From an uncultured delta proteobacterium (GTDB taxonomy: Bacteria; Desulfobacterota; Desulfomonilia; Desulfomonilales; Desulfomonilaceae), in contig CAWBKB010000001.1 of the NCBI GenBank assembly GCA_963789265.1, positions 1,600,001-1,664,000 on the forward strand: DNA of 64,000 nt, given 5' to 3'. The position numbers and the translations under genes are program-made. Shown here piece by piece: positions 11,923 to 35,151 of this stretch. Numbering within the stretch: the first letter of the stretch is position 1; the number at the start of each line of letters is the position of its first letter. The notes beneath the pieces were generated by a model that ran no database searches, had not been told where the DNA came from, and was given only the letters and a program-made list of their open reading frames with translations.

Positions 11923-11999
11923 GGAGGCGAACCGGGTTCCGAAAATGGAGTAATTGGCTTTCCTGAAGATGACATTAAATTAGTCTCTCGCCACTATTC

Positions 12000-13367: not shown

Positions 13368-13961
13368 TTATTCTACCTGTTTAGACGCCAATCGGTACCA
13401 CGAGTCTCTCAGCGCGAGGAATCTCTGTCTTCTCCTTGAGAAGAATGGGTTGGAAATGCCCCGCCTGAGAATTTTCGGCCTTCTTTCCGGTATTGCAGAC
13501 GCCAACATGGAACTCGCGGGCCCGATAACAGACACTCTCACAGGCGAAGTTCCCTGGGCCACCATGCCGATTTTCTGCGCTGCCGCAAGTGAAAGATCAA
13601 TCACCCTGTCCTTCACAAAAGGTCCTCGATCATTGATCCTCACAACCACGTTCTTATTATTCTTCAGGTTGGTGACCCTCACAAGTGTGTTCAAGGGCAA
13701 GACACTGTGGGCAGCCGTAAGGCCATGCATATTATATACTTCTCCTGACGATGTTTTTTTGCCGTCAAATCCGGGCCCGTACCATGAAGCCACACCATCC
13801 TGAAAAAAACCCGGACAAGCCTTCTGCAAAGGGTGGTAGGTGCGACCTCTTACCGCATAGGAATTTGGACAGCCCCCTTTTACCGCGACAATTCTGGAAG
13901 CGCAACCGGCCGCTATGACAGACATAAATAAAGCCATAATAGTGAGTTGGAATAATTTCAT
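13368..13961 (-). CDS. rlpA: Septal ring lytic transglycosylase RlpA-family lipoprotein
   Basis: Lipobox AAGC, GVASWYG, TAAH..LPL, VRINDRGPFV..RVIDLS. Confidence 0.92.
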   Translation of the reverse strand: MKLFQLTIMALFMSVIAAGCASRIVAVKGGCPNSYAVRGRTYHPLQKACPGFFQDGVASWYGPGFDGKKTSSGEVYNMHGLTAAHSVLPLNTLVRVTNLKNNKNVVVRINDRGPFVKDRVIDLSLAAAQKIGMVAQGTSPVRVSVIGPASSMLASAIPERRPKILRRGISNPFFSRRRQRFLALRDSWYRLASKQVE

Positions 13962-17026: not shown

Positions 17027-17899
17027 GTGAGATACATAGGATCTGTTTACCGGCCTCCAAGCGAGGCCCATAGTCTGATAATTCAGGCAACGCTGGGTTG
17101 CAATCACAACAAGTGCACTTTTTGCGGAAGCTACCGTGATAAACGTTTCACGATCAGGTCGATCAAGGATATTCGAGAGGACCTAAAGGAAGCCCGCGAT
17201 ATGGGGCCGATTCCACGTGTCTTTCTCGCTGACGGCGATGCCCTGTGTATGCCACAGAAGCGCCTGGTGGAGGTCCTTCAGGCAGTCGAGGAATTTATTC
17301 CCTCTGTGGAAAGGGTCGGCATTTATGCTAACGCCAGGAACATCCTGCGCAAGTCACTCGAAGACCTCCAAGCGCTCGCATCATTGAAGCTGGGCATAAT
17401 CTACATGGGGGTCGAGACCGGAGATAGTGTCCTGCTCGAAAATATTTGCAAAGGATCCACTTACGAACAGTTGGTAGAGGCAGGCAAGAAAGTGAAACAA
17501 GCCGGAATAACTCTTTCTGTAACGGTGCTCTTGGGGATCGGGGGGATTGAAGGCAGCGAGCGGCATGCCCGCGCGACTGCGAGAGTGTTGACTGACATGG
17601 ATCCGGACTATGTGGGGGCACTGAGCGTCATTCTCGTACCGGGAACACCGCTTCACAAGGAATTTGTCGAAGGCCGATTCCGGCTTCCCGATCCCTTCGG
17701 CCTTATCAACGAATTGAGAATTATGATAGCTGAATCGTCCTTTAGCCATTGCGTGTTCCGATCCAACCACGCTTCAAACTATTTGCCGGTGAAGGCTACA
17801 CTTCCGGAGGATAAGAAAAGGATCCTGGAGGCTATCGACACCGTGCTTGAATCGCGTGACGAGAGGAGACTCAGGCCGGAATTCCTTCGCGCCCTGTAA
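17027..17899 (+). CDS. Radical SAM protein
   Basis: YRPPSEAHS, GCNHNKCTFC, FLADGDAL, FRSNHASNYL. Confidence 0.9.
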   Translation: MRYIGSVYRPPSEAHSLIIQATLGCNHNKCTFCGSYRDKRFTIRSIKDIREDLKEARDMGPIPRVFLADGDALCMPQKRLVEVLQAVEEFIPSVERVGIYANARNILRKSLEDLQALASLKLGIIYMGVETGDSVLLENICKGSTYEQLVEAGKKVKQAGITLSVTVLLGIGGIEGSERHARATARVLTDMDPDYVGALSVILVPGTPLHKEFVEGRFRLPDPFGLINELRIMIAESSFSHCVFRSNHASNYLPVKATLPEDKKRILEAIDTVLESRDERRLRPEFLRAL

Positions 17900-17943
17900 T
17901 AGCCGGCTCTGGATTCACCTAAACTTGGCGGGGGGCTTGCAAA

Positions 17944-20900
17944 TTGCTATGGGGAGGAGTTGTCGTGTCTGTGCATAGGTACCTTGGCATAGATTGCGGG
18001 TCGGTTAGTCTGAATTTGGCTCTGCTTACCGATGGAACTAATGAACCCATCTCAGTGTATCTGCGAACCCGAGGGCGCCCTCTGCAAACGTTGGTAGAGG
18101 CCGCAGACGAGCTGATCACGATCTGTGGCACAGACGTGTCCATTACCTCAGCCCTGGTAACCGGGAGCGCTCGGGAACTACTAGCCAAGGCATTGAATAT
18201 CCCGGCGGTAAATGAGATCAGCGCCCACGCTGCAGGAATCCAGCACGTGAATCCCAGCGTGAAGACTGTCATTGAAATCGGAGGCCAGGATTCAAAATTC
18301 ATCAGGATACAACCCCTCCTGAATAGTGGCAAATCCCGCATTCACAGCTTCCGGATGAATGAGATCTGTGCTGCGGGAACCGGAGCGTTCCTGGACGAGC
18401 AGGCAGAAAGACTTGGGATCGGAATAGAATCATTCGGTTCGTTGGCGCTTCAGAGCGACAAGCCCGCTCCGATTGCCGGGCGCTGTGCGGTATTCGCTAA
18501 GACCGACATGATTCACCGGGCCCAAGAGGGAACGCCCCTTCCGGACATTTTGCTTGGACTTGCCTTTGCTCTTGTTCGTAATTATATCGCCACCTTGATA
18601 AGGGGAGACTCGCTGGTTCCTGTGGTTGCGCTCCAAGGTGGCGTGATGAGCAATCAGGCTGTTGTTCACGCGTTCCGGAAATTGCTCGATCTGGAAGAAG
18701 AACAGGTTCTGATTCCACCCCATTATAAGGTCATCGGCGCCTTAGGGTGCGCTGTGCTCACCGCCGGTTCCAAGTCCTTGCACGGACTCTCCCTCGGAAC
18801 TATCAAAGCCGCGGCTGACAAAGCTTCGCGAAATCCCTTTTCGCATTCGTTCTTCAATCCACTCAATCCGGCATTGAATTCGAAACCGCCGACCATAGAG
18901 ATCGCCGGCAACGGGGCCTTGTCGACAAGTCGCCTTGTCATGGGACTCGATGTTGGTTCGGTTTCCGTGAAAGGGGTGATCCTGGATGGTAAAGGCCGCG
19001 TTGTCAGAGAAGATTACCGCCTTTCCAGATCTCTTCCCCTGGAAGCGTTAGCACAGGTGGTAGGCTCCTTGACCGATGATGATATCAGCATCGCAGCGAT
19101 TGCGGTAACCGGTAGCGGCCGCCATCTTGCAGGCGGGCTCTTAGGTGCCGACCTGATCGTCAATGAAATTACCGCGCAGGCGTGCGCCGCACTCAGTTAC
19201 GACTCCGGTGCCGACACTGTCGTCGAAATTGGGGGACAGGATTCCAAGTGGATTTCTCTTGAAGACGGGCAAGTCGGGGACTTCGAGATGAATCGAGTTT
19301 GTGCCGCAGGCACTGGCAGTTTCTTGATGGCGCAAGCTCAACGTCTGGAGCTCCCCATGGGCGATACCTTTTCAGAGGCTGCTTTCGCATCATACAGACC
19401 CGCGGACCTGGGAAATCGGTGCACGGTCTTCATGGAATCGGACCTGATTCACCACCAGAATAACGGGGCGTCGTCCGAGGATTTGGCCGCGGGTGTCTGT
19501 ATCAGCATAGTTCACAACTATCTCGAACGAGTTGCGAATCACAAGCCTCTTGGAGAAAAAGTCCTCTTCATGGGCGGGGTAGCGGCTACTCCGGCAGTGA
19601 AAGCAGCGTTTGAGCAGCAAACTGGGCGCCGGTTCGAGACCCCGCCGTTCTTTCGAGTGTCCGGTGCCGTCGGGGCCGCATTGAAGGCATTGGAAGGACT
19701 TGAGGCCGAAACTATTGTTCCCGGACAACGTAAACCGATCCATTGGGATCCCGAACAAATCCGAAAGGAGCAATTTACCTGCAAAGGTTGCTCGAACCAG
19801 TGCAGTGTCAACAAATATAAATCCGGGGAAAGACAAGTCTTCCACGGAGGCTTATGTGACCGATGGGAGATGGATGACGGACCGCGGGGGCGCGGTGATG
19901 AGCCCGATCTCTTCTCATTCAGGGCCCGCCTTCTCAAGGAATTGTCCAGCACAAGTCTCAATGCGGACATATCCTGGGCGATGGTTCAGTCACCGCAATT
20001 CTACGAGTGGTTTCCGTTTTGGAAGGTCTTCTGCGAGGACTTGGGTATTTCGCTGCTGGTCTCCTCTCCGCCAACCCGGAAACAATTCGAGAGCGGCTCG
20101 CGGTTCCTGCGTGTTGAGACATGCCTCCCCATGAAGGCCATGGCAGGGCAGATCGAAGACCTGGTAAACCGAGGAGCAAAGATGCTGTTTCACCCGGCGA
20201 TTCTGAGCGAATCGCCTTCGGTCCGGGGAAACAAACCGTTGGACCATTGCCCGTTTATTCAGGCTTCCTCTCAGTTCTTTCGGGAAACCTTTGACGTCGA
20301 ATGGAAAGAGCCGGTGGTGAATTGCGAGATTGATGCGGATGCTCTCCGTAGGGAGTGTGTTTCGTTTGCTCGCGGTCTCGGGTTTTCACACTATAAAGCA
20401 ATGTCCGCGTTCGGAAAGGGGCAACAGCATCTCGAGCAATTTCAAGCTCGCCTTCGAAGAGAAGGGGAAGAATTCGTGAGCTCACTGGGCCCAACCGAGC
20501 CGGCAATTGTCGTGCTCGGCAAGCCATATCACACTTCCGATCCTTTTCTTAACATGAACCTGGGCAGCCTCCTTCATAGACTGGGGATTCGTGGTCTCCC
20601 CGGCGACCTGTATCCGCTGAGAAGTTCGGCTGCCGAGAAGCCGGTTTCTTGGAAATATCAAGGAAATATGATCCAGGTCGCCCGCGAAATAGCAGAAGAT
20701 CCAAGGCTCTTCCCGGTCCTTATCACTTTCTTCGGTTGTGGTCCCGATCCGTTTACTCTGCGCCATATTAAGGAAAGTATCGCAGACAAGCCCATGCTCA
20801 TCTTGGAAATGGACGAGCACTGCTCAAGGGCGGGGATTATTACCAGATTGGAAGCATTTCTTGACCGTATCACCCTGAGCAGGAACGGATGCAAGACGGG

Positions 20901-22308
20901 ATTACATTCACGTTCCGCGTCAAAGCCCGTTGACACTCCCGGAGAGAGCAGCGCGGAAGTTGCGGCTCAGCCGGCAATAGTCTCGGCCCACGGACCCTCG
21001 GCCTCCGAGACTAACGAGCAGCACCACTTTTCCATGAAGCATGGAGCACTTCAACCTGCCGGCAAGCACAAAGGGCACGGATCGAGAGCCGAAGTTCTCT
21101 ATATACCTTTTATAGGTGACCATGCTTTCGGATTTGCAGCAGCCGCCCGGTCGGTAGGAGTTGATGCCCGTGTACTTCCTCCTCCGGATGAAGAATCAGA
21201 GCGCCTGGGACGCCCGCACATGGTTGGTGGTGAGTGCCATCCGTACGCTCTGGTCCTGGGAGACTACCTCAAGGTTGCTCGGGTGCTGTCAACCGAAGAC
21301 GCGCGACGATCCCTATTTTACATACTAGGCCCTGACGCATGTCGGCTGGGACAATTCCCGACGTACATTGAGAAGGTTCGCCGCGAGCTCGGGCTCGGCG
21401 TCCATGTGATTCGGGACATAGATGAAGGGATCAATGCTTTCGCAGTTTCCGCGCGGAGCAGGCAGCAGGTGTTGCTAAGGGCCTGGGAGGGATTGAACGC
21501 GTATGACGTGCTGCTCCGGCTGTTTCTTCAAGTTCGCCCCAGGGCGCAAGATCGGGTGCTCCTCGAGCATGTTTACATTCGATGTCGAGACAAGCTCTAC
21601 AAAGCCCTTTCAGAGGGCAGGGTCAGAGCTGGGATGGACGAAGTCCTTCATGACCTTGATGCAGTGGCGCTGTACGACTCGGATCCTGTACCGGTTGTCG
21701 CTGTTACCGGTGACTATTACACTCGGATAGTGCCGTACGCCAATAATGACGTGTACAGTGAAATAGAGGCTCTCGGCGGCATGCTCTGGTCACCGCCGAC
21801 ATTCTCGGATAGTTACAAACTGGCGACGTTAAGGGATTTCTTGTGGAGCGTCATGACCGGCCGAACACGGGCTGCTGCTGAACACGGAATCTTTTATACT
21901 TTGATGACGATATCCGAATTTAAGGTCAAGGCACTACCGAGAGCTCGAAGGGCTCTAAACCGATCCATCGACCTGACCGGGTTGAATATGTGGAGAAAGG
22001 CTTCCGAGCATTCCCACAGCCGGCTTCCTCCGGGAATCAACGCCCCGCTTGCGACCGCGCTTAATTATCTGGATCAGGGTGCAGACGGCCTGCTCAACCT
22101 TATAACCCTGAACTGCTCTTATGGCACCGTGGTTACAGCAGCGCTGCTGCGAGCATTAAAGAAAAGACCCGGTATCCCGCTGCTAACGCTGGTCTTTGAC
22201 GGACTCAAGAAGACCAACGAAAAGACTCGCCTGGAAGCGTTCATGGAGCAGGTTAGAGACCGCTTTCATACCAGGTTGCAGCACCACGGGAAGCGATCCG
22301 CCGGCTGA
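17944..22308 (+). CDS. Fused 2-hydroxyacyl-CoA dehydratase activase (two BcrAD/BadFG domains plus DUF2229/HGD-D-like regions)
   Basis: Two copies of G.D.GSVS, EIGGQDSK, MN..CAAGTG.FL; ETCLPMK, FGCGPDPF, ECHPY, CRLGQF. Confidence 0.92.
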   Translation: MLWGGVVVSVHRYLGIDCGSVSLNLALLTDGTNEPISVYLRTRGRPLQTLVEAADELITICGTDVSITSALVTGSARELLAKALNIPAVNEISAHAAGIQHVNPSVKTVIEIGGQDSKFIRIQPLLNSGKSRIHSFRMNEICAAGTGAFLDEQAERLGIGIESFGSLALQSDKPAPIAGRCAVFAKTDMIHRAQEGTPLPDILLGLAFALVRNYIATLIRGDSLVPVVALQGGVMSNQAVVHAFRKLLDLEEEQVLIPPHYKVIGALGCAVLTAGSKSLHGLSLGTIKAAADKASRNPFSHSFFNPLNPALNSKPPTIEIAGNGALSTSRLVMGLDVGSVSVKGVILDGKGRVVREDYRLSRSLPLEALAQVVGSLTDDDISIAAIAVTGSGRHLAGGLLGADLIVNEITAQACAALSYDSGADTVVEIGGQDSKWISLEDGQVGDFEMNRVCAAGTGSFLMAQAQRLELPMGDTFSEAAFASYRPADLGNRCTVFMESDLIHHQNNGASSEDLAAGVCISIVHNYLERVANHKPLGEKVLFMGGVAATPAVKAAFEQQTGRRFETPPFFRVSGAVGAALKALEGLEAETIVPGQRKPIHWDPEQIRKEQFTCKGCSNQCSVNKYKSGERQVFHGGLCDRWEMDDGPRGRGDEPDLFSFRARLLKELSSTSLNADISWAMVQSPQFYEWFPFWKVFCEDLGISLLVSSPPTRKQFESGSRFLRVETCLPMKAMAGQIEDLVNRGAKMLFHPAILSESPSVRGNKPLDHCPFIQASSQFFRETFDVEWKEPVVNCEIDADALRRECVSFARGLGFSHYKAMSAFGKGQQHLEQFQARLRREGEEFVSSLGPTEPAIVVLGKPYHTSDPFLNMNLGSLLHRLGIRGLPGDLYPLRSSAAEKPVSWKYQGNMIQVAREIAEDPRLFPVLITFFGCGPDPFTLRHIKESIADKPMLILEMDEHCSRAGIITRLEAFLDRITLSRNGCKTGLHSRSASKPVDTPGESSAEVAAQPAIVSAHGPSASETNEQHHFSMKHGALQPAGKHKGHGSRAEVLYIPFIGDHAFGFAAAARSVGVDARVLPPPDEESERLGRPHMVGGECHPYALVLGDYLKVARVLSTEDARRSLFYILGPDACRLGQFPTYIEKVRRELGLGVHVIRDIDEGINAFAVSARSRQQVLLRAWEGLNAYDVLLRLFLQVRPRAQDRVLLEHVYIRCRDKLYKALSEGRVRAGMDEVLHDLDAVALYDSDPVPVVAVTGDYYTRIVPYANNDVYSEIEALGGMLWSPPTFSDSYKLATLRDFLWSVMTGRTRAAAEHGIFYTLMTISEFKVKALPRARRALNRSIDLTGLNMWRKASEHSHSRLPPGINAPLATALNYLDQGADGLLNLITLNCSYGTVVTAALLRALKKRPGIPLLTLVFDGLKKTNEKTRLEAFMEQVRDRFHTRLQHHGKRSAG

Positions 22309-22970: not shown

Positions 22971-23219
22971 ATGCGAGTGATCACCGTCTGCGTGGGGAGC
23001 GCCTGCCATCTCAAAGGTTCCCACGAGATAATAAACTATTTCAAGACAGCAATAGCAGAAGCCGGAGTCGAAAAGGAAGTAGAACTTAAAGGAACTTTTT
23101 GCATGGATCAGTGTACTGATGGAGCCAATCTTCTTATCGACGAACAAATTTTCCATGCCAATTCAGTCGACGATGCCAGGCAAATTTTTCAAACGGAGAT
23201 ACTCCAGAAGCTAAAGTAA
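22971..23219 (+). CDS. Thioredoxin-like [2Fe-2S] ferredoxin (HfsA/NuoE-like)
   Basis: CVGSACHLKG...GTFCMDQC; AAGGAG RBS. Confidence 0.9.
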   Translation: MRVITVCVGSACHLKGSHEIINYFKTAIAEAGVEKEVELKGTFCMDQCTDGANLLIDEQIFHANSVDDARQIFQTEILQKLK

Positions 23220-23233
23220 AAGGTGACGGCATC

Positions 23234-25540
23234 ATGGACTCAGCTAGACCTAAAAGAGTACCTTGGAAGAGTTGGAGTGACTTCACAGCATGGGCTCAGG
23301 ATTTCTCTCTGCGGCAAAAGGTGCTGGGGGGATTCCTGGGTGTGGTCGTGCTTGTGGGATTGGCCACGATCCTGATCGGCACCCGGCTTGCCAGGGAAAC
23401 GATTATCGATCGGGCCAGGATCCGGCTCTTCAGCGATCTTGCTACCGCTGGATTTATTTTGAAGAACTCCCAGGAAGGTTTGGAACTCAAGGTCCGCATG
23501 GCTGCGGATTCAGAGAAGTTCAAAGATCTTCTGGCCAAAGGAGAAATCCACGAAATTCGTAACAGTCTGGCAAAACTGGCAGTTGAAAACGATTTGGATT
23601 TCCTTTCTCTCACCGACGATAAGGGCCGAGTCCTGGCCAGGGCTTTTACTCCGGAAATCAAGAACAAGGACGTCTCTGCCGATCCTCTGGTCGCGGCTGC
23701 ACTGAAAGGACAGGATTCGTCCGGCGTGAGGCTGGTTTCCGTGGAAAGGCTTTCAGACGAGAACCCGACACTCCTTCGTCGCATAGGAGAACGCCCTGAC
23801 AAGAAAGGCATGATACTGGAAGCAGCGCACCACGTTGTCACGGGCTCGACGGTGACGGCTACGTTTTACGGTGGAATACTTCTCAATGGCAACAATATCA
23901 TTGTGGATACGATCTCACGTAGGCTCTTCAGAGGAGAAGTCTTCGATAAACGGGACGTCGGGTATGTGGCTATATTTCAGGGAGACCAGGCAGTCAGCAC
24001 CACTTTGAGGGGGCGAGATGGTCTGCCTGTCCTGGGTTTCACGGCGGGCGGGGAGATTCGCGACAAGGTTCTCGACATGGGGCAGACCGAAATCACCTGG
24101 GAATCTCAGCTAGGGGCCAGGTATCTTTCCGCGACCGATCCAATTCGCGACCCTGGGGGGAAGATCATAGGCGCTCTTCAGGTGGGCACCCTGGAAAAAC
24201 CCATTACCTCAGTCATCCACAGACTCGTGGGAACCTTTATGGTGGTCGCATTTTTCGGGGTTCTGCTGATGGCCGCGATTTCTTATTTCCTTGTCAAATG
24301 GATTAATCGGCCGCTCGAACAGATGCTCCACGCGGCGAGAAGAGCCGCTGACGGTGACTTGAGCCATGAAGTCCCTGTCATGGCCAGGGATGAAGTCGGC
24401 GAGTTGGCTGCGACATTCAACCTGATGATCCGCAATTTAGCCGAATCGCGTAAGAAACTGGAAGCGTGGGGCGAACAACTGGCGTCCAAGGTGGCAGCTC
24501 AAACCGGCGAATTGGATCAAGCTCGAGAACAGGTCGCGTGGGTCAGGAAACTCGCATCGCTTGAAAAAATGGCCGACGGGATGAGCCACATAATGGCGCA
24601 CATCTCGGACCCAATGGTCGGATTTGCCGCACCCGGGGACGGCAGCGGGACCACAAGTAGAATACTTATCCTGGATACAGACGAGAAAGTCCTCGAAATC
24701 TGCGAGCGTATCCTGGAGAGCGAAGGGTTCGAGGTGAAACTGGCCCGTACGGTCGACGAAGCCCTGGCGGATCTTGAGAAACAATTCTTCGATGTAGTCG
24801 TAGCGGACATCGACATGCCGGAAATGAGCGGCCAGGATCTTCTCAAGGAGATGAAGTACCGACAACCTGAAGTTCTCGTAATATTGACAGCGCCGTTCAA
24901 AGCGACCGAAGAAGCGGTCGAGGTGGTGAAAATGGGCGCTTACGATTATATACCCAAGCCTTTTGGTCCACATCAGATCCTGCTAATGGTCTATACAGCG
25001 CTCCAGACAAAAGAGATGCTCCAAAAGACACGGCGACAACATGCCGAACAGAGGGCCGAGGCGATCTTCCAGCGCCTGCCCGTGGCGATAGCTCTGGCCG
25101 ATAAAGCTCACCGCGTGGTCTACCACAACAGAGCTCTCACTGAACTTGCCGCGCAGGACGGGGAGGACACTGTTCGGGGCAAGACCTTCGGAGAACTATT
25201 CGGGGTCGATCCCCTGGATGAGGGCATGGGTGAAGAAGAATCCGGTGGCTCAAGATGGTTGCAACTCGACAAAGTCGGCCGCACCGCAAAACTTTACAAT
25301 TTCGAGCTGCCCGATGAGGACCTCAGGGTCTTGATGCTTCTGGACATTACCGACACCGTTATGAAGGACCAACAGGCCGACGTTTTCAAAACCGAGACAA
25401 TTACGAAAGCTCAGCAGGTCATACACCAGCAGATGCGTGTGGCCCAGGAGATAGCCGGATTGCTTGGAGAGACCACCGTGGAGACCAAAGCGGCCCTTTT
25501 TGAGTTGATCAAGCTGGCAGGTGAGGGAGAGTCACGATGA
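23234..25540 (+). CDS. Membrane sensor: Cache-like, HAMP, degenerate HisKA, receiver, PAS, HfsB/HydS-type C-terminal helix
   Basis: Two TM helices; DEVGELAATFNLM HAMP; KLASLEKMADGMSH; VVADIDMPEMSG..YIPKPF; QMRVAQEIAGLLGETTVETK tail. Confidence 0.85.
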   Translation: MDSARPKRVPWKSWSDFTAWAQDFSLRQKVLGGFLGVVVLVGLATILIGTRLARETIIDRARIRLFSDLATAGFILKNSQEGLELKVRMAADSEKFKDLLAKGEIHEIRNSLAKLAVENDLDFLSLTDDKGRVLARAFTPEIKNKDVSADPLVAAALKGQDSSGVRLVSVERLSDENPTLLRRIGERPDKKGMILEAAHHVVTGSTVTATFYGGILLNGNNIIVDTISRRLFRGEVFDKRDVGYVAIFQGDQAVSTTLRGRDGLPVLGFTAGGEIRDKVLDMGQTEITWESQLGARYLSATDPIRDPGGKIIGALQVGTLEKPITSVIHRLVGTFMVVAFFGVLLMAAISYFLVKWINRPLEQMLHAARRAADGDLSHEVPVMARDEVGELAATFNLMIRNLAESRKKLEAWGEQLASKVAAQTGELDQAREQVAWVRKLASLEKMADGMSHIMAHISDPMVGFAAPGDGSGTTSRILILDTDEKVLEICERILESEGFEVKLARTVDEALADLEKQFFDVVVADIDMPEMSGQDLLKEMKYRQPEVLVILTAPFKATEEAVEVVKMGAYDYIPKPFGPHQILLMVYTALQTKEMLQKTRRQHAEQRAEAIFQRLPVAIALADKAHRVVYHNRALTELAAQDGEDTVRGKTFGELFGVDPLDEGMGEEESGGSRWLQLDKVGRTAKLYNFELPDEDLRVLMLLDITDTVMKDQQADVFKTETITKAQQVIHQQMRVAQEIAGLLGETTVETKAALFELIKLAGEGESR

Positions 25541-26695
25541 ACGATGCGTTGTTCATCGAAGCCGGCGGAGCTAACATCTGCAGGTACGGGGAAATACTTT
25601 GCGGAGACTCATTATCTGTTGCTCCGATGGGTGGTGGCAAGCTCATGGTCCTCTCCGACGGCCTTGGCAGTGGAGTCAAAGCAAACATCCTGGCTACCTT
25701 AACGACCAAGATAGCCATGCGGTTGATGGAACGGGGCCTTCCCCTCGAAGAAGTTGTAGCGACACTAACCGACACGCTTCCCGAGTGCAAAGTTAGGAAG
25801 ATTGCGTACAGCACCTTCACTTTGCTGAAGGTGTTGGAAGACGGGCGGGCATATCTTGCGGAGTTCGACAACCCGCCAACGTTCTTTCTCAAGCGAGGCT
25901 ATGTCAGCCAGTTGAGGTACAAGGATCGAGTTATCGGCGCGAGAAAAATCCGCGAGGCTCACGTCCACCTGAATGCCGGTGACTGGTTGATAACAGTCAG
26001 TGACGGTGAGATTCATGCCGGAATTGGCGGGCTGCTGAATCTCGGCTGGGATTGGGAAAAGATCGCCAAGTTCCTTGAGACCCAGGTCTATGAAGATATT
26101 TCCGCCCAAAAGGTTGCTCAGATACTGGTGGACCAGGCTCGCCAGCTCTATGAAGGGAAGCCGGGTGACGACACGACGGTTGGGGTATTGAAGATACGGC
26201 CCAAGCGCATCAGTGCGTTCATGATCGGTCCACCGGTGAGACGTGAAGATGACGACATCGTAGTGAAGCGATTCCTGGAGACACCCGGCCGCAAAATAGT
26301 CAGTGGTGGAACGACAGCGGGCATCCTTGGCAAAATGCTGGGAAAAGACGTGATAGTTGACCTCTCGACCATGACCAGCAAGATTCCGCCCACCGGAAAG
26401 TTGGACGGGATCGACCTCGTGACCGAAGGAGTCCACACAGTAAACCATGCACTGGAAATACTGGAAAAGGTGAAAGATATCGAACAGCTCGTTGCCAAGC
26501 GCGATGGTGCAAGCCGCCTCGCTTGGGAGTTCCTCTATGCGGACAGTATCAATATCTTGCTGGGCCAGGCCATCAACCCCGCGCGACCTGAATCCTAACT
26601 TGCCTCAGGAAATGGGGTTCAAGAGCCGTAGCGTGCAAGCCATTGCGAACCTTCTCAGAGATAGCGGCAAAGAGGTTAATCTTGAAATTCACTAA
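25537..26695 (+). CDS. SpoIIE/PP2C-type phosphatase (HfsC-like); +1 frameshift at about 26585, probably an artefact
   Basis: LCGD, LSDGLGSGVKANILATLT, SDG, GDDTTV, SGGTT, LVTEG; removing one G gives AINPAHLNP. Confidence 0.88.
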
Positions 26696-26752: not shown

Positions 26753-27637
26753 ATGAGGATTATTGCACCAATGAGTTTAGCTTGTCCGGTCTGCCTAAGC
26801 GAAAATCGGGAAATGGACGGATTTGACCTGATTTCAGTCTTGGGCCTTATGAAAGAATACAATTGGCAAGAGATTTGGAAGCGATACCGCCCCCAGAGTT
26901 CTCGAAATGACACCATAAGCATGTACGTGCCCGCCGACCTCTATTTCATAGAAATGCACGTCCAAAAGATGCAGCGGATAATCCTTTCGGAAAAGTTCAA
27001 CACGAACCCCTTCTTCATGCAACAGGTCATCCAAAGGATAATCGCATCCCACGACCATGACCTCATTATGGGGAAGATACGACAGCAAGGGATTGACACT
27101 GGAGATAATCCCATCTCTTTGTCATGTTCAATGGGGGACACGATAATAGATTTGATCGTGAACAGAGAAGAACACCGCTCAAAAAGAGCTTCCGCTCGCC
27201 ACGAAAATACCCATATCGAGATGGTGGAGAACCGGCCGCTGGATATCTACGACCTCTCCTCCACGTTGTACCTCTGTCAGCAAAACCTCTCCGGTGCGAT
27301 CTTTAAGCGGTACGAGGACCCGGAAAGTCAGCCAGATAAAGACCCGTCGGATCGTCGGGTCACGATCCGAACTCAAGTGGGCGATTACTCTGTATGTTTG
27401 GACTTCAGACAGGTTTCCACCCGAACGGAAAGAATAATCCCTCCCCCCGGCAACGCATCGGTTTTCACAATGCATCAGGTTCTCCAGAGAATGAATTTCA
27501 GGCATGCACCGACGCTTATTCTGAAGGAACTCAACGACGTGGGGCTTTCAGTCACACCGGAGCAGCTAGACAATCAGTTCACGTTGCAGCGATACATAAA
27601 TGACACTGTCTTGCACCTGGACTTCAAACGCGCCTAA
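26753..27637 (+). CDS. Hypothetical protein with N-terminal CxxC and an internal two-fold repeat
   Basis: 294-aa ORF directly after the phosphatase; CPVC; duplicated motifs. Confidence 0.75.
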   Translation: MRIIAPMSLACPVCLSENREMDGFDLISVLGLMKEYNWQEIWKRYRPQSSRNDTISMYVPADLYFIEMHVQKMQRIILSEKFNTNPFFMQQVIQRIIASHDHDLIMGKIRQQGIDTGDNPISLSCSMGDTIIDLIVNREEHRSKRASARHENTHIEMVENRPLDIYDLSSTLYLCQQNLSGAIFKRYEDPESQPDKDPSDRRVTIRTQVGDYSVCLDFRQVSTRTERIIPPPGNASVFTMHQVLQRMNFRHAPTLILKELNDVGLSVTPEQLDNQFTLQRYINDTVLHLDFKRA

Positions 27638-27813: not shown

Positions 27814-29946
27814 TTATCTCCCCATTTTTCCCAATGCCTTTCGACACGCGGCGGTCTCTTTGTATGGACCGCTCCTTTGCCACACAGGGTCATCGTAACG
27901 ATCGTGGCAAGGGAGGCATGGAGCAATGCTAACTATTCTTCGGATCTCTTCCTTATTGAATCCTCTCGACAGCTTGTGGGATGTGCTTTGCTGGACGCTC
28001 CCGGAACTATCGACTATTGCATCGACCGGGAAGCGTATTCGTAAACCCGAGCTCTTCGAATCGTAAATAGACAGCAATTCCATGGATTTGGTTTTAGAGT
28101 TCCAGGTCAGGATACCATCTCCCAGCCCCAGCGCTTTGGGGTCCGAGTGGCAGTCAACACAACGGGGCACCTCTTTTCGAACCGTATGAGGATGTGTGGG
28201 GCCCATTGCTATGGATGATAGACCGTTCTTGAGCTTCATGATTTTGGAATCGTACGGAGGAACGACTTTGCCTCCGGCATCGATGACCGTATTCCACACC
28301 TGGCATCCGGGAACGAGAATTCCCACCTTGCCTCTGGAGTTAATTCCGTAGATGTTCCGTTCAAATCGGAAGAAGCCCCGTCCCTCTGCCCATCGGCCTT
28401 TAGTCATATTTCCGGATATGTGATCCAAGCCCTTTGAACCAAGATCCAGGACTTGATGGCACCCGTAGCACTGCGGGCTCCAGGCGCTGTGGCAGGTATC
28501 GCACTCAAGCCGCTTGTGGCCGTAAATTGTGTGTCCGTTTTTCCTTCCTGTTATTATACTTACCGAATGTCCTTTGCCTGTAAGTTTGTCCGTGAGTCTC
28601 CATCCTTTTTCAGTGAGCCGGACATGAGGCATCGGCCTCTCTTTCGAGGTCTGAAGTATAACGTCGCCGTCGGCAAGCTTCAAAAGCGGGGAGGCCCTTA
28701 TCAAAGTACGCACCAGAGGATTGTTGTTGTCCACGGTCATGGTCCTGGGAGGGGTTGAGTAAGAGCCGTGGCAATCTTCGCACCGAATCTCTACCTGATC
28801 CTCTATATGAGCATAGATTTTGCCGTCCCCCATGGTGTCCTGACCTGCGTGGCAATCTATGCATGCCATTCCTTTTTCATGATGAATGTCGGGAACGAGA
28901 TTCCAGATGAATCTATTGTCGCTCAGCGTTTCGTCGTTGAGACCGCCGTGGACAAAGGGGGTCCCATACTGTGTGCTTTCCATTTGCCCGTGATAGCTCA
29001 AGCCGACCCTTGCGCTGCGATTGTGGCATGCCCGGCAGCGGTCGTCCGGGATCTTGTTGGTTATGGTATGGGTAGCCGGATGGCCGACTTCATCCCGTTT
29101 GACGGTAGGATCGCAGCCCACGTAATGGCCCTCTTTGCCATAAGGCGCATGGCATGCAGGGCAGCCTTCCATACGTCCCATCTTTTTTCTGTACCGGGAA
29201 TTCCACAGATGGCATGCTGCACAGAATTTTTGGAACTGGCTTGATGCAAGGTCGAGATCGCCTCTCCGGTTGATTTCCGGTGGGACTGCCGCGAGGCTGG
29301 TCTTGCCATCAGATACAGATCGGATGGCGAACCTGGGGTTGTTGTCCTTCTCCAGCCCCCATTGGAAGCGCAATATGCTGATTATCCCCGCGTTGGTGGC
29401 CATCAAAGACTTGGGAACATTTTCAACACGATTAAGCAGCGGATTCACCCTTCCGGAATGACAGGTTCCTGCACCGGGAGCAGAGCTGCCGCAGCCCACG
29501 GGTGCCAGATCGAGCCTGGCGGGATTGCGTCCACCTCTTAAGCCGAGATGTGCGCCTCGGACTGTAAGATCCGCGGCATTACCGCCGTGGCAGGTGACGC
29601 AACCGAAAACAGAGTTGGGATGGGATTCGGACACGTCTTCAATTCCGAAATGGCAGGACATACAGCGTTCCGGAGGCAACTTGCCGCCAAAGGGGCTGAT
29701 CTCAATCACCTTCGGCGGTTTGTTCCTCAAGATTTCTATCTGCGCGAGAATTTGTCGCTTTTGGGCCAGCCGCGGTTCATCTGCCAAATTCTTTTCCAGG
29801 TGCGCTATTGTTAGAGCTATCCCCTTTCTTTGATAGCTTTGCCATTCAGGATTGCGGCCACGATATTCGACGTAAGCGAACGCAGCCAACAGAGCCATGC
29901 CTGCCGCCACAGTTGCGAGCCGGAACCCGGAGCCTGATGTCTTCAT
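27814..29946 (-). CDS. Multiheme c-type cytochrome (ExtM-like)
   Basis: 11 CxxCH motifs plus one CX9CH; N-terminal membrane anchor. Confidence 0.88.
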   Translation of the reverse strand: MKTSGSGFRLATVAAGMALLAAFAYVEYRGRNPEWQSYQRKGIALTIAHLEKNLADEPRLAQKRQILAQIEILRNKPPKVIEISPFGGKLPPERCMSCHFGIEDVSESHPNSVFGCVTCHGGNAADLTVRGAHLGLRGGRNPARLDLAPVGCGSSAPGAGTCHSGRVNPLLNRVENVPKSLMATNAGIISILRFQWGLEKDNNPRFAIRSVSDGKTSLAAVPPEINRRGDLDLASSQFQKFCAACHLWNSRYRKKMGRMEGCPACHAPYGKEGHYVGCDPTVKRDEVGHPATHTITNKIPDDRCRACHNRSARVGLSYHGQMESTQYGTPFVHGGLNDETLSDNRFIWNLVPDIHHEKGMACIDCHAGQDTMGDGKIYAHIEDQVEIRCEDCHGSYSTPPRTMTVDNNNPLVRTLIRASPLLKLADGDVILQTSKERPMPHVRLTEKGWRLTDKLTGKGHSVSIITGRKNGHTIYGHKRLECDTCHSAWSPQCYGCHQVLDLGSKGLDHISGNMTKGRWAEGRGFFRFERNIYGINSRGKVGILVPGCQVWNTVIDAGGKVVPPYDSKIMKLKNGLSSIAMGPTHPHTVRKEVPRCVDCHSDPKALGLGDGILTWNSKTKSMELLSIYDSKSSGLRIRFPVDAIVDSSGSVQQSTSHKLSRGFNKEEIRRIVSIAPCLPCHDRYDDPVWQRSGPYKETAACRKALGKMGR

Positions 29947-30332
29947 GCAAGGTAGCCCCAGACGGTCAAGAAAATCACAGCTCCGCCAATCACAAAGAAT
30001 AGAGTACGTATAAGAGTTCGTTTGTCACAGGCGTAGGGTACCAGGGCTAAGGCGAGGAGCACAACCAGGGGAATAATGATTCCCGCGATGATAGGAGGGA
30101 AGTAACGCAGCATTTGCTGGATTCCCACGAAGATCCAAGGGGCCTTGACGTGTTCGGCAGCGAGGCCCGCAGCATCTGCTGGTGCCTTTATTGGAGCGTC
30201 TACCAGAGACGAGAGCAACGCGGCCGCGGCCAAAGTAATCAAGGCTGCAAGTCCTTCCTTGCGAAGAAGATCGGGAACGCTTCGTATTCTGGGATTTTGC
30301 CGCGCGGTCTCTTTTTGCACTGAACACTCCAT
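29943..30332 (-). CDS. Cytochrome b C-terminal / subunit IV-like membrane protein (ExtQ-like)
   Basis: Three TM helices; KAPWIFVGIQQMLRY (PEWY-equivalent). Confidence 0.75.
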   Translation of the reverse strand: MECSVQKETARQNPRIRSVPDLLRKEGLAALITLAAAALLSSLVDAPIKAPADAAGLAAEHVKAPWIFVGIQQMLRYFPPIIAGIIIPLVVLLALALVPYACDKRTLIRTLFFVIGGAVIFLTVWGYLA

Positions 30333-30556
30333 TTCCCAAATGTGGTCTCGCGTTCCGGTACAATAGCTGTCATTCTCGCGTATGCGGGAATCCAGACATT
30401 GGCGGACAAGATGCCCACCCTACTATCGCAGGTCGTCGTTACCATGTTCGCGGGAATACATTGTAGGGGCACCTCTAGTGGGTGCCCGCGAGGGGGCAGG
30501 CGCAAGGTCGGCCCCTACGAACCCTTGAAACGCGAGTGTGCTACGACTGAATAAAT

Positions 30557-31631
30557 TTACTCTTTTATAATACGGAATCCTACCGTGCGATAGTAACCTC
30601 GGGGAGATGCCTTGTGGCGGTTCCGAATCCTCTTTGAGGCTTGTACAGAGGCCCACGAGCCTCCTCTTATGTTCTTTTCCTCGCCCAATGCAGGCCCCAC
30701 GGGGTTGCTCGAGGGGCTCTCGTGGTAGTAGTCATGCGAATACCAGTCCAGGCACCATTGCCATACGCTACCTGTTATCCCGGTCACTCCTTTGGCCCCG
30801 TGCACGGCCATGGTCACAGGGACGCTGCATTCCTTCGACAGGATGGCCATAGAGTTACCGGCAGTGTCGGGAGTGCAGAGCAGAGCGGCCTTTTCCCATT
30901 CCGCGGAAGTAGGAAGGCGACCTCCCGCCCACTCGGCATACTCGGCAGCCCCGTACCAGGACACACAAACCATGGGCTTGTCCGCACAGCCTTCTTTGGG
31001 CGTGAAAACTTTGCCGATCTTAACTATAGGACAATCGGGGCTGGTCAGCTTGATCCTTGGGAATCCATCCTTGGAATTCTCTCCCCGCGCGTTGAGAAAA
31101 TCGCAGTATTGCTTTGCTGTGACCTCGTACTTGGCAATGTAGAAATCCTCTATGAAGACCTTGTGAGCCGGACGTTCGTCGGGCCTTCCTTCGCCTTCGG
31201 GGCTCCCCATGTCAAAAGGGCCGGCAGGGATGAGAACCATACCTCTGTACTTTCCAACACCCTCAACTAGATTATTCGCGTCAACCGACGGCGTAGGAGC
31301 GCTGGGTTTGGGAACCGGCTTCAGCTTGGGAGGGAGAGGAACAGATGGACCGCCGGGACAACCGGGCAGCAAGGGGCAGTTGGATATGTTCGGCTCAGAT
31401 TGATCAGCAGACCGGCTCACCAGGCAGAAAGGCGACGAATTCTCGTTCAAGCGGCTCGAATTGTCGCCTGCGGCCCGGCCACCGGTCCAAAGAGGCAGTA
31501 CCGACCGCGATACCCAAACACAGCGCCCAGGTCTTCAGATTCCATTCGGGCGCCGCCAGGTCCACGCAGGCAACTCCATCATTGAGTTGTGGAACCTCAA
31601 ATCGACTTTCGGGGTGGCTCAAATTCCTCAC
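30557..31631 (-). CDS. Formylglycine-generating enzyme family (SUMF1) protein; +1 frameshift near 31501 separates the signal peptide
   Basis: MVLIPAGPFDMGS, YEVT, VSWY.A..YAEWAGGRLPTSAEWEKAA, RGGSW, GFR. Confidence 0.82.
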
Positions 31632-32817: not shown

Positions 32818-35151
32818 ATGACTGATTCACGCACAGGAGCAGCCCGGGTCAGGCAGGTCCTTCAAGAATTCATGCCTCGCGTGGTGCGGGAACTTCTTGA
32901 GACCGAGGTCCATCTCGGTACAGATCGACTGTATAGACATGCAGTCGGTTTAGTGGTTGAAACGCTCCTCCCACAGACTCGGCCAGGCAAGAATCCACGG
33001 TTCGCCGCGAGTCCCACCGGGGTACTAGCCGTACTAGAAGAAATTTCCAAAAGAATTGGGACGTTGGACCCGGAAGAAATAGGCGCGGCTTATGAACATC
33101 TGAGCGGCTTCAAAATCGAAACAACAGCCGCTAATTCGTCCCGGCTGGTGCCGAGTGTCCGGAATAGGAGGAACCAGGGGCTTTTTTATACGCCTAAAGC
33201 GATAGTCAGGTACATTGTGGATCAGACGATAGACGCACTGGGCATCAAGGAACCGTCTCATTTTCTCGACCTGAAGATTCTGGATCCGGCGGTGGGTACC
33301 GGCGTATTCCTGGCTGAAGTTCTGGACCAACTCACAGTGCGCATCCTTGCGGCGATGGACAGCGGAGACAAGCTTCTTGACTATAGGGTCAAAGACATAA
33401 GTAAACGATTGCGCGCGAAAGCGAAGGAGCACGGCATCGGGATTGTGCACGACGAGGAGGCGGCGATCAAAATTCACATTGTCAGCGAATGTCTGTACGG
33501 CGTGGATCTTGATCCAATTGCTGTAAGCATTGCCCAAGCGGTTCTGTTGACGCGAGCATTCGGACGGAAACATGTCATGCTCGGAATCGAGCCGCGTGTC
33601 CGAGTGGGAAACGCCCTCATAGGAGAGGTGACCGGTTGTCTACCTTTTTCCTCAAAGGATGCCTGGGAACAGAGCCATGCTGCGGCCTATTACGGGAATG
33701 AGCAGGTCGGTAGCGAGCGTGCACGTGCATGGTCCGAAGAGAAGAGAGTATTTCACTGGTTCGTTGAATTCCCGGAGGTTTTCGATGAGCCACGGGGTGG
33801 TTTCCACGCAGTGGTTGGCAATCCGCCGTACGAGATTCTGTCGGCAAGAGAGTCCGGCTTAGACGAAAGACGCAAAGACCAAGCTTATATCAGGAAAACG
33901 TTTCGCACATGCCAAGGAAAAATCAACACCTACCGTCTCATGCTCGAGCGCGGTCTAACGCTTCTCAGAAAAAAAGGGGCTTTGGGCTTCATTATCCCTG
34001 CAACTCTGCTGGCAGACTCTACCGCAGACAAACTCAGGCGCATGATCGTGGACAATACCACTGTGCTCAGAACCGTGATTGTCCCTGAGAGAGCGCGAGC
34101 CTTCGGAGGAGTCACGCAGGCACTCCTCATCCTCGTCACCCGTAACGGTGGCGGGACTCGCTGGATTGAGCCCATTTTCTGGGAGGGGAGGGGGCCGATT
34201 CCAACGAGGGGCCGAATAGAGGTCACAAGGGACCTGATCGAGCAAACAGGATTCAGGATTCCATCCATAAAGAGTCATGAAGAGTTGTCGTTCCTCAAGG
34301 CACTATTACGACACCCCCCGTTTGGAGGAAACATGGACGTTCCTCCTGTGGGGCGAGTGCATCAGGGCGAAATCAACCTCACTATCCATCGCGAATTTAT
34401 AACCGCCGCCCGGACAGAGCATCCGTTAATACGAGGAGAACACATCGTGCCGTTACGCGTGAATCATCCATGCCCCGGCGGCCGCAGACTCGATTGGGTC
34501 TCCCCTGATTTTCTCGAGTGGTACGCAGGTCGAAAGAGGTCTTCCGAGGGCGGCCAGTCCTCAAGCATGACGATACGATCTTGCCGATTCAGAGGGACCC
34601 CATGGGAGCAAGACCGGATCGCAATCGGCCGTGTCGTAAATATGGACACGGATCGACGGCTCAAGGCTGCCATTGCACCTGCCGGCGTGTTTCTTGGAGA
34701 CATGACGAATTTTATTTCAGAGATGTCCGTGCCTATTCGCTATTTGCTGGGCCTCCTCAATTCGAGGGTTTTGAACCGGCGCATTAAGCTTACAAGCACC
34801 AATAACTATCTGTCAGCAGCGGAAATCGAGGCATTGCCGATACCGCGAGTTCCTGGCGAGGTTTCTTCGGCTATCGCAAAATACTCTGAAGAAAAGTTCA
34901 CGCAGTTGCTGATCGATCCGGCTGATTCCATACCGGATTGGCTGGTAAGACTGGAGCGACTGTCCGATCCACCGGGAGCGAATGAAGGCTGTCTCTATGT
35001 TTCCAGAATGATCGAATTAGTTGTGCAGGCCATAGAAGCACTTGCCTCGAATCCGGCCGAGGGACAAGATCAAACGGGGTCATTATGGCACCTGCTCGAC
35101 GCCTTGGTCCTGAGACTTTACGGGGTTGAATCTCACGTCGAGATTATGTGA
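32818..35151 (+). CDS. N6-adenine DNA methyltransferase (TaqI/Eco57I-like)
   Basis: GLFYTP, ILDPAVGTGVFL, LYGVDLD, FHWFVEFPEVF, VVGNPPY, YLLGLLNS. Confidence 0.9.
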   Translation: MTDSRTGAARVRQVLQEFMPRVVRELLETEVHLGTDRLYRHAVGLVVETLLPQTRPGKNPRFAASPTGVLAVLEEISKRIGTLDPEEIGAAYEHLSGFKIETTAANSSRLVPSVRNRRNQGLFYTPKAIVRYIVDQTIDALGIKEPSHFLDLKILDPAVGTGVFLAEVLDQLTVRILAAMDSGDKLLDYRVKDISKRLRAKAKEHGIGIVHDEEAAIKIHIVSECLYGVDLDPIAVSIAQAVLLTRAFGRKHVMLGIEPRVRVGNALIGEVTGCLPFSSKDAWEQSHAAAYYGNEQVGSERARAWSEEKRVFHWFVEFPEVFDEPRGGFHAVVGNPPYEILSARESGLDERRKDQAYIRKTFRTCQGKINTYRLMLERGLTLLRKKGALGFIIPATLLADSTADKLRRMIVDNTTVLRTVIVPERARAFGGVTQALLILVTRNGGGTRWIEPIFWEGRGPIPTRGRIEVTRDLIEQTGFRIPSIKSHEELSFLKALLRHPPFGGNMDVPPVGRVHQGEINLTIHREFITAARTEHPLIRGEHIVPLRVNHPCPGGRRLDWVSPDFLEWYAGRKRSSEGGQSSSMTIRSCRFRGTPWEQDRIAIGRVVNMDTDRRLKAAIAPAGVFLGDMTNFISEMSVPIRYLLGLLNSRVLNRRIKLTSTNNYLSAAEIEALPIPRVPGEVSSAIAKYSEEKFTQLLIDPADSIPDWLVRLERLSDPPGANEGCLYVSRMIELVVQAIEALASNPAEGQDQTGSLWHLLDALVLRLYGVESHVEIM

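Follow-up and report, generated by a model that had tools for sequence, protein, structure and literature searches.

A probable Hfs/HydS-type three-gene signalling cassette with an exchanged sensor input in Desulfomonilaceae

What input does a HydS-type phosphatase cassette serve when the sensor encoded in front of the phosphatase is not a hydrogenase? This question is raised by three neighbouring, co-oriented genes, A, B and C, which were identified by ORF calling at 22971-26695 of the window, i.e. the whole 64,000-nucleotide stretch of Desulfomonilaceae DNA that was analysed (Table 1). The system used for comparison was hfsABCD/hydS, the "phosphatase-linked" [FeFe] group C3 of Thermoanaerobacterium, Ruminococcus albus and Thermotoga maritima, in which the phosphatase is regarded as the signalling partner of HydS, according to a table in PMC5037454 and passages in PMC6776011. 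All three parts of the window locus have homologues in HydS loci, their order and coupling are conserved, and the domains in front of the PAS domain and tail of the sensor have been swapped: the PAS-tail ends a sensory [FeFe] hydrogenase in most bacteria, and a Cache-HAMP-REC membrane protein in Desulfomonilaceae. On balance we consider it fairly probable that the locus is a Hfs/HydS-type three-gene signalling cassette with its sensor input exchanged, for which we infer both the contact between tail and phosphatase and the direction of the signal. A full-text literature search found no published description of a Cache-HAMP-REC-PAS-tail/phosphatase cassette, in line with the earlier note on this DNA, which had supposed the arrangement to be undescribed.

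Table 1. Cassette genes, domains of the gene B product and neighbouring features in window coordinates; residue numbers are those of B.
Feature	Coordinates	Strand	Description
Gene A	22971-23219	+	82-aa thioredoxin-like [2Fe-2S] ferredoxin, HfsA-like small subunit
Gene B	23234-25540	+	768-aa membrane sensor: TM-periplasmic Cache-TM-HAMP-helical linker-REC-PAS-tail
Periplasmic sensor domain, Cache-type, residues ~52-330	23387-24223	+	Between two hydrophobic segments
HAMP domain, residues 352-403	24287-24442	+	PF00672, E 2.1e-15
Linker motif KLASLEKMADGMSHIMAHISDP, residues 439-460	24548-24613	+	Conserved among B relatives
REC domain, residues 477-586	24662-24991	+	PF00072 (Response_reg), E 9.4e-25
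PAS domain, residues ~602-723	25037-25402	+	Weak Pfam matches and profile matches to solved PAS
Conserved C-terminal tail, residues ~724-768, core QMRVAQEIAGLLGETTVETK	25403-25537	+	Common to HydS/HfsB
Gene C	25537-26695	+	HfsC-like PP2C (SpoIIE-family) phosphatase with C-terminal alpha/beta domain; +1 frameshift inside
Extra base	26581-26585	+	GCGCG in window, GCGC in the orthologue of locus L001 (DNA alignment)
Gene D	26753-27637	+	294 aa; possible fourth gene of the unit, membership uncertain

The link to the hydrogenase systems is carried by the end of B. Residues 596-768 matched HydS-type proteins over the whole length of the segment with 30-39% identity and E-values down to 3e-18, and the last 173 residues of B retrieved 509 representatives at E≤1e-3; among the listed matches of 400-1,000 aa, 61 of 62 contained the H-cluster domain (Fe_hyd_lg_C) together with the FeS and PAS domains of HydS. 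Judged from these matches, the last 173 residues share ancestry with the PAS and tail at the C-terminus of HydS/HfsB sensory [FeFe] hydrogenases. The direct Pfam matches to PAS, at B 609-660, were weak and below the cut-off (E 6e-4 to 3e-3), and positions 7-128 of a profile built from 80 homologues matched the solved PAS domains of WalK (4mn5, E 1.1e-7) and of a YtvA/FixL chimera (4gcz, 2.2e-7). As in Hfs/HydS sensors, PAS is followed by the conserved tail (KQMRVAQEIAGLLGETTAETK), whose core motif at ~25430-25490 occurs once in the window. Ten tail residues (Q138, M139, E144, I145, A146, L149, G150, E151, T152 and T153) were invariant in 80/80 homologues, and the tail of B returned no Pfam family and no PDB sequence match. 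The tail-coding end of B runs into the start of C through an ATGA stop/start overlap at 25537-25540, as the earlier note had described.

Upstream of the PAS domain the two sensors differ in domain content. Unlike HydS, B has no Pfam match to the H-cluster domain (PF02906) or to Fer4 clusters, the PF04060 "FeS" [4Fe-4S] domain that precedes PAS in HydS is absent with REC standing in its place, and the protein has a single cysteine (C490). B instead contains two hydrophobic segments (residues 26-54 and 324-358) enclosing a predicted extracytoplasmic Cache sensor (sCache_3_3, PF17202, residues 217-329, E 2.2e-14), for which relatives of B also have precomputed Cache_3-Cache_2, dCache or LuxQ-periplasm matches, followed by HAMP and REC. 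Pfam matches and hydrophobicity thus bear out the earlier reading of B as a membrane protein without Fe-S or H-cluster domain.

Between HAMP and REC lies a linker with no Pfam match at E≤5, in which the motif KLASLEKMADGMSHIMAHISDP was invariant in an alignment of 10 sequences; its histidines are kept in 112/120 (H452) and 115/120 (H456) relatives. To our own eye, and not as the output of a tool, the motif looks like a histidine kinase H-box. The N-terminal two thirds of B (TM-Cache-TM-HAMP, H-box-like helix, REC) are laid out like Cache-HAMP hybrid histidine kinases, from which B differs in that no HisKA or HATPase_c match was obtained with Pfam (for the linker even at E≤5), that the ATP-binding domain is absent, with no kinase domain after the linker, and that the PAS-tail follows the receiver. 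The window copy has the acidic pocket D481/D483, the acceptor D525 and K575, and this receiver is probably able to accept phosphate. K575 is kept in 120/120 relatives; position 525 is D in just 98 of the 120 (E in 11, A in 7, N in 2 and Q in 2), so the family as a whole cannot require phosphorylation.

The flanking genes correspond to the other two parts of the HydS locus. Gene A, preceded by a RBS-like GGAAAGGAG, encodes a match to PF01257 (thioredoxin-like [2Fe-2S]; Pfam E 2.4e-7), and its four cysteines (Cys7, Cys12, Cys44 and Cys48) are kept in 66/66 aligned homologues. Its homologue in HydS loci is the small [2Fe-2S] protein encoded ahead of HydS, so that B, too, has an HfsA-type protein directly upstream; since this protein is retained, a redox input to the cassette may persist. 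Gene C is homologous over the whole gene to the phosphatase following HydS (E 1e-55 to 1e-112, 35-49% identity). Its product matches SpoIIE (PF07228, residues 36-220, E 3e-17) and contains the catalytic motifs CGD, SDGLG, SDG and GDD; the residues of the metal-binding Asp motifs (D24, D41, D156, D211 and D212) were invariant in 61/61 sequences. The model of the L001 orthologue (pLDDT 89.7) placed the PP2C half with SpoIIE 5mqh at E 5e-16, the Foldseek matches of this half being SpoIIE and 3pu9 (E 5e-16 to 1e-15), and fold matches to 3ke6 and 3zt9 were also obtained. The C-terminal domain was modelled with pLDDT 92.3, yet returned 0 PDB matches at E≤0.001 and no Pfam match at E≤5, and its atlas matches were unnamed proteins of ~151-156 aa. 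The best PDB match for this domain, a methylglyoxal-synthase-like fold, reached a TM of ~0.4.

The arrangement recurs well beyond the window. A TM-Cache-HAMP-REC-PAS-tail protein was found in at least 120 clusters with 75-100% identity in the tail part, and A-B-C with a Cache-type B in nine species-level genomes (L001-L009), where the three genes stay together while their flanks vary; the phosphatases of the Cache type form one clade in the tree (8/8, SH-aLRT 100). The wider coupling was counted in the best 80 of at least 594 genomic matches, so the counts describe the top-ranked relatives and not all. These loci come from at least eight phyla, and in 80/80 of them the next gene after the tail-bearing one, on the same strand, is a C homologue; the gap between the two ORFs is -41 to +39 in 74/80 and the exact 4-nt overlap of the window occurs in 31/80, and an A homologue lies ≤400 nt upstream of the tail-bearing gene in 71/80. 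Fusions of B with C were not found; in each of the three long matches C stands N-terminally and is followed by unrelated or downstream sequence.

The survey of tail proteins without a hydrogenase domain, which the earlier note had proposed, brought several of them to light. The input attached to the PAS-tail was a hydrogenase in 64 loci and Cache-HAMP-REC in nine; in six loci, from cyanobacteria, Planctomycetota and Chloroflexota, no input domain was present, the cyanobacterial minimal forms being ~170 aa long and adjoining hypA. REC alone (REC-PAS-tail, 265-297 aa) was found in 31 clusters, and a cNMP-binding domain precedes the PAS-tail in P0232. The stand-alone REC-PAS-tail proteins of the P0126 family (~297 aa, metagenomic) resemble the C-terminal part of B: whole P0126 aligned with B 476-766 at 37% identity (E 7e-57) and with an identical tail motif, although these proteins are soluble and lack Cache, HAMP and linker. 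The Cache-HAMP-REC cassette is therefore one among several hydrogenase-free variants, and the PAS-tail is the sole part of B common to all five input types. As several such inputs exist, PAS-tail, PP2C and [2Fe-2S] protein form an output core that stays constant while the sensors are exchanged.

When set against hfs/hydS as a whole, the window locus has the same succession of [2Fe-2S] protein, PAS-tail sensor and PP2C with the same C-terminal domain, and stop/start overlaps are common in both, which agrees with the hfs-type gene order claimed before. The hosts differ, hfs/hydS being found in fermenters and the Cache type in Desulfomonilaceae, as do the genes that follow. Of the 40 downstream genes scanned in HydS loci, 10 were of the hfsD/HydA2-type hydrogenase, in agreement with the description of hfsD as a HydA2-like hydrogenase in a passage of PMC11837493, and 3 were of hydABC; neither follows the Cache-type cassette, and no hydrogenase gene was present among the 51 window ORFs scanned or beside the nine Cache-type loci. 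Gene D is possibly a fourth member of the unit: its homologue follows C in four of the nine Cache-type loci (L001, L003, L004 and L005), and its product belongs to no known family, with no Pfam, NCBIfam or atlas match. Around the A-B-C unit, Rfam gave 0 matches at E≤1, and neither promoter-like nor terminator-like sites exceeded the level of shuffled sequence.

By its fold C belongs to the SpoIIE/RsbU branch of PP2C enzymes, for which control by a PAS or receiver input has precedents, as the abstracts of PMC3183031, PMC5468089 and PMC12143880 indicate. In contrast to RsbP (PAS-coiled coil-PP2C), RsbU/RsbT, SpoIIE and RssB, sensor and phosphatase are separate polypeptides in the window cassette, and C lacks a regulatory domain at its N-terminus, having instead an alpha/beta domain without solved relative at its C-terminal end. 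It also differs from RsbU-RsbV-RsbW partner switching, as no STAS or anti-sigma partner gene lies near C: the scanned window ORFs and the flanks of L001-L008 contained no STAS antagonist or anti-sigma kinase gene, and neither the window ORFs nor the flanks of the Cache-type loci held a conserved kinase, STAS or sigma-factor gene nearby. The window does encode a Pkinase-WD40 protein (58203-62069), 32 kb from the cassette, and three transposase genes.

Two alternatives concern the integrity of the locus. That B is an assembly chimera, with a membrane sensor joined to the 3′-end of hydS, has a negligible probability: nothing was found in its favour, and the full-length architecture occurs at ≥700 aa in 106 of the 120 listed clusters, in nine independent assemblies and in the finished genome of Desulfomonile tiedjei, where AFM23216.1 has the same architecture as B. 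The assembly chimera that the earlier note had named as a possible refutation is thus rejected. The phosphatase gene with the limits given in that note, in turn, did not hold as one open frame up to 26695. Orthologues of C are 384-385 aa long, whereas frame 1 of the window copy stops at 26598 (ORF 25537-26598, 353 aa) behind the extra base, and the rest reads in the out-of-frame ORF 26492-26695; the family near-invariant residues H350, K362 and K378 fall in the frame lost, which may leave the window cassette inactive. A decaying pseudogene locus, with a real frameshift and the pathway switched off, would fit this one-base insertion, which removes the last 40 residues, and the transposase genes of the window. 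We nevertheless hold it unlikely, since A and B remain intact, as does the PP2C half of C, with 78-95% similarity to their orthologues, the extra base lies in a GC run and could be an assembly error, and all complete orthologues of C (8/8) are in frame.

The other two alternatives accept the genes and redraw the connection between them. The tail might be the substrate of C, the Thr-Thr of LLGETT receiving phosphate from an unlinked Ser/Thr kinase and having it removed by C, which would reset B. The invariance of T152 and T153 (80/80), the phospho-Ser/Thr specificity of PP2C enzymes, the lack of any other substrate gene conserved in the neighbourhood and the Pkinase-WD40 protein, distant as it is, speak for such a role, which we nonetheless find rather improbable: none of the 80 loci examined has a linked kinase, and G-E-T-T followed by A-E-T-K can, in our own reading, be taken as the two caps (C-cap, then N-cap) within a helical hairpin, so that the invariant threonines would have a structural explanation. 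Alternatively, B and C might be inherited together and act apart, B in a phosphorelay via its receiver and C on an unlinked partner-switching module, with the PAS-tail serving for dimerisation only. All phosphotransfer residues are indeed present in the window REC, and the usual targets of SpoIIE/RsbU-type phosphatases, to which the 3ke6 and 3zt9 fold matches point, are STAS proteins whose genes lie close by or at another site. Against separate action, however, stands the adjacency of tail gene and phosphatase gene in 80/80 loci of many phyla, with frequent stop/start overlap and across five input types that have the PAS-tail alone in common, and this alternative too appears improbable.

Under the preferred reading, a cassette with an exchanged input, B would control C via the tail, and both Cache and REC would feed the phosphatase. 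A periplasmic ligand would alter the Cache/HAMP state of B, and the change would travel through linker and receiver to the PAS-tail; the receiver of the window copy would probably also be phosphorylatable by a kinase. The PAS-tail, complexed with the phosphatase from the overlapping downstream gene, would then switch PP2C activity on a phospho-Ser/Thr substrate, and the [2Fe-2S] protein A may serve as redox input or as structural subunit. The comparison isolates the parts that stay constant without a hydrogenase, i.e. PAS-tail, phosphatase and [2Fe-2S] protein, and thereby indicates the tail as the coupling element. A wider view, to which we give somewhat less than even credence, would make the "HydS pathway" an input-agnostic core of PAS-tail, HfsC-type PP2C and HfsA-type [2Fe-2S] protein with the hydrogenase as one of at least five plug-ins; in Desulfomonilaceae this core would integrate a periplasmic cue, receiver phosphorylation and, via the [2Fe-2S] protein, a redox signal to set a Ser/Thr phospho-switch, the 45-residue tail talking to the phosphatase.

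For structural work, two unannotated domains are flagged, the tail and the C-terminal domain of HfsC. The family also offers simpler experimental systems than the oxygen-sensitive H-cluster protein, namely the ligand-driven membrane sensor of the cultured D. tiedjei, the 297-aa response-regulator form and the ~170-aa minimal forms of cyanobacteria, and the Cache-type cassette gives a new handle on signal transmission in the poorly understood hydS pathway.

The three genes are tightly packed on the plus strand and encode a [2Fe-2S] protein (A), a membrane sensor (B) and a SpoIIE/PP2C phosphatase (C), with 14 nt between A and B, and the B stop overlapping the C start in ATGA at 25537-25540. All elements listed in the earlier note were recovered, where it had placed them, by ORF, Pfam and hydrophobicity analysis. 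B contains a single cysteine and two hydrophobic segments (residues 26-54 and 324-358), which would leave ~280 residues outside the membrane.

Features of the cassette and its possible fourth gene, D
Feature	Position in window	Strand	Residues of B	Description
Gene A	22971-23219	+		82 aa; thioredoxin-like [2Fe-2S] ferredoxin, PF01257, E 2.4e-7 (Pfam)
Gene B	23234-25540	+		768 aa (ORF, Pfam)
sCache_3_3			217-329	Pfam
HAMP			352-403	Pfam
Linker helix	24548-24613	+	439-460	between HAMP and REC; invariant, H-box-like (KLASLEKMADGMSHIMAHISDP)
Response_reg			477-586	Pfam
PAS			609-660	weak Pfam matches
Gene C	start 25537	+		SpoIIE at residues 36-220 of C, E 3e-17 (Pfam)
Gene D	26753-27637			294 aa; N-terminal CPVC motif; no family in Pfam, NCBIfam or atlas

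The HAMP plus receiver (REC) architecture of B recurs in at least 120 clusters among the matches listed, with tail-region identities of 75-100%, and 106 of the 120 listed are at least 700 aa long. The finished D. tiedjei genome encodes the same architecture (AFM23216.1/WP_014808375.1, annotated merely as 'response regulator'). An artefact or assembly chimera not seen in relatives, the danger raised in the earlier note, is thereby ruled out.

The PAS domain and the tail, i.e. the conserved C-terminal helix following it, had been claimed to be of HydS type, and this kinship was borne out. B residues 596-768, searched against 1.84 billion cluster representatives, gave 509 matches at E ≤1e-3, headed by five of B's own family and thereafter mostly by proteins of ~550-630 aa, which align with 30-39% identity across their C-terminal 165 residues. 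Fe_hyd_lg_C, Fer4, PF04060 'FeS' and PAS, the HydS/HfsB architecture, were present in 61 of the 62 listed matches of 400-1,000 aa scanned for domains (two >1,700 aa were left out); the exception was a PAS-GGDEF protein aligning with the start of the PAS only. Invariant tail residues in the module alignment from 80 genomes are Q138, M139, E144, I145, A146, L149, G150, E151, T152 and T153. The module profile matches solved PAS domains over positions 7-128; its tail portion matched no solved structure, and the tail has no Pfam family.

When the module alignment was scanned against one genome per species, at least 594 of 600 stretches were confirmed, and the best 80 were kept. In all 80 of these, the tail gene is followed on its own strand by a C homologue, with an ORF gap of -41 to +39 in 74 and an exact 4-nt overlap in 31. 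An A homologue is found ≤400 nt upstream of the tail gene in 71; in several of the other nine, the contig breaks off or the A-like domain belongs to a larger upstream protein. The four cluster-binding Cys of A (66/66 homologues) and the PP2C metal-binding Asp motifs of C (61/61) are conserved throughout. [quoted passage not shown]

Among the same 80 loci (best of at least 594), the tail gene is HydS-type in 64, Cache-HAMP-REC type in nine (L001-L009, all Desulfomonilaceae or related Thermodesulfobacteriota), a stand-alone PAS-tail protein of 166-190 aa in six (three cyanobacteria plus Geitlerinema, a planctomycete and a Chloroflexota MAG) and an apparently split HydS in one (L074). Compared with the HydS family, the window locus is without the defining H-cluster domain and has the output machinery in common. 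Domain scans of 46 shorter PAS-tail representatives returned 22 FeS- or hydrogenase-bearing pieces, 13 with PAS only, five without any family, two pieces of B's own family, and one each of REC-PAS-tail (P0126), cNMP-binding-PAS-tail (P0232), amidohydrolase-PAS and Complex1_51K-tail, the last two of which may be artefacts. Tail proteins without a hydrogenase domain, whose survey the earlier note had proposed, thus include Cache-HAMP-REC, stand-alone PAS-tail, REC-PAS-tail and cNMP-PAS-tail forms: the sensory input is exchangeable. Over its full length P0126 aligns to B 476-766 (37% identity, E 7e-57), and its family (31 clusters, 265-297 aa) has the receiver at the start and the tail motif at the end; by this alignment and layout, B looks like a fusion of a Cache-HAMP membrane sensor with a REC-PAS-tail unit. 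In the phosphatase tree (n = 61), eight Cache-type sequences form a single clade (SH-aLRT 100), and three cyanobacterial sequences form another, nested among HydS-type rows. With this tree unrooted, the hydrogenase is more likely, short of proof, to have been the part that was replaced.

The HAMP-REC linker motif KLASLEKMADGM(S/A)HIMAHISDP is invariant across ten diverse members, and H452 and H456 are conserved in 112 and 115 of 120 listed relatives. Visually it is similar to the H-box of histidine kinases; Pfam matched neither HisKA nor HATPase in B or the linker, and the helix could be left over from a hybrid histidine kinase or serve in phosphotransfer. The receiver of B carries D481/D483 together with acceptor D525 and K575, making phosphorylation plausible in the window copy. 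Since the acceptor position in the 120 listed relatives is D in 98, E in 11, A in seven, N in two and Q in two, phosphorylation cannot, from these residues, be essential to the Cache-type family. The modelled L001 phosphatase (pLDDT 89.7) matches SpoIIE, 3pu9 and RsbU-like structures over its first 225 residues; the final 160 adopt an alpha/beta fold (pLDDT 92.3) for which the PDB gave nothing at E ≤0.001, and they resemble unnamed stand-alone proteins only.

Gene C, held earlier to extend to 26695, does encode a SpoIIE protein starting within B, but not in a single open frame. GCGCG at 26581-26585 has one base more than in eight in-frame orthologues (384-385 aa), so that frame 1 stops at 26598 (353 aa) and the last 40 residues, including the near-invariant H350, K362 and K378, are encoded only in ORF 26492-26695. 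The extra base could stem from faulty assembly or be a genuine mutation. With its end out of frame the window copy might be a pseudogene; we regard such decay as unlikely.

The phosphatase gene is the one constant neighbour of PAS-tail, often translationally coupled by arrangement; that B and C function separately seems rather improbable. It is similarly doubtful that the Thr-Thr of the tail, invariant as it is, serves as substrate of the phosphatase.

Flanking genes vary among the nine Cache-type loci; a gene D homologue (family 288-306 aa) follows C in four (L001, L003, L004, L005). Upstream in the window, at 17027-22308, a radical SAM gene (290 aa) is followed by a gene for a 1454-aa activase-like fusion, in which two BcrAD/BadFG ATPase domains are joined to DUF2229 and an HGD-D-like end, and the 1454-aa protein also precedes the cassette in L001, L002 and L009. 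Downstream, the minus strand at 27814-31450 carries three clustered genes, for a 710-aa Cytochrom_c3_2 protein rich in CxxCH haem motifs, a hydrophobic protein of 129 aa and an FGE-sulfatase-like protein; L001 has a comparable set at 10692-13642. The window further contains, at 32818-35151, a restriction-modification methylase of Eco57I type (777 aa, with Eco57I and N6_Mtase domains). Transposase genes lie at 6778-7980, 9252-10712 and 42833-43807, each from another family (ISAzo13-type DDE, DDE_Tnp_1 and IS1595). No linked kinase, STAS, sigma-factor or hydrogenase gene was found among the window ORFs scanned and the Cache-type flanks. A single Ser/Thr kinase was seen in the window, at 58203-62069, 32 kb from the phosphatase; it is 1288 aa long and has a Hanks-type domain ahead of many WD40 repeats.

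Among 40 genes scanned downstream of C in HydS loci, the next gene was a catalytic [FeFe] hydrogenase (~480 aa) in ten, a NuoE-like bifurcating-enzyme subunit in three, adhE in one (L053) and a sigma-54 activator in one (L040). The L053 gene (8729-11080; Bacillota MAG) encodes an AdhE-type aldehyde/alcohol dehydrogenase directly 3' of the hfsC-like phosphatase, which fits the hfsB-adhE regulatory link reported in PMC5707799. In two cyanobacterial minimal loci, the order is [2Fe-2S] protein, ~167-aa PAS-tail protein, phosphatase, an unknown 149-167-aa gene and hypA ([NiFe]-hydrogenase maturation; L070 8962-9300, L071 8936-9274). Canonical cassettes thus adjoin what they are thought to regulate, whereas the Desulfomonilaceae neighbourhoods offer no such clue to the target.

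In Kiritimatiellia, according to a 2026 preprint, hydS occurs together with genes for a PP2C phosphatase and an alcohol dehydrogenase. The papers on HydS, hfs and the phosphatase neighbour that were searched in full text, from a collection with few subscription journals, yielded no description of a hydrogenase-free cassette, in line with the earlier 'apparently undescribed'; the word means here not found, and no more.

Of B, PAS-tail alone is shared by every cassette type, and the phosphatase is its constant neighbour, so the simplest and most likely reading is that PAS-tail would bind the phosphatase and switch its activity, the N-terminal part being the sensor; no natural B-C fusion protein was found. 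In B, a periplasmic ligand would act through Cache/HAMP, and the receiver would modulate that signal. Retention of the [2Fe-2S] protein suggests that a redox input, or a structural role for this protein, persists without the hydrogenase.
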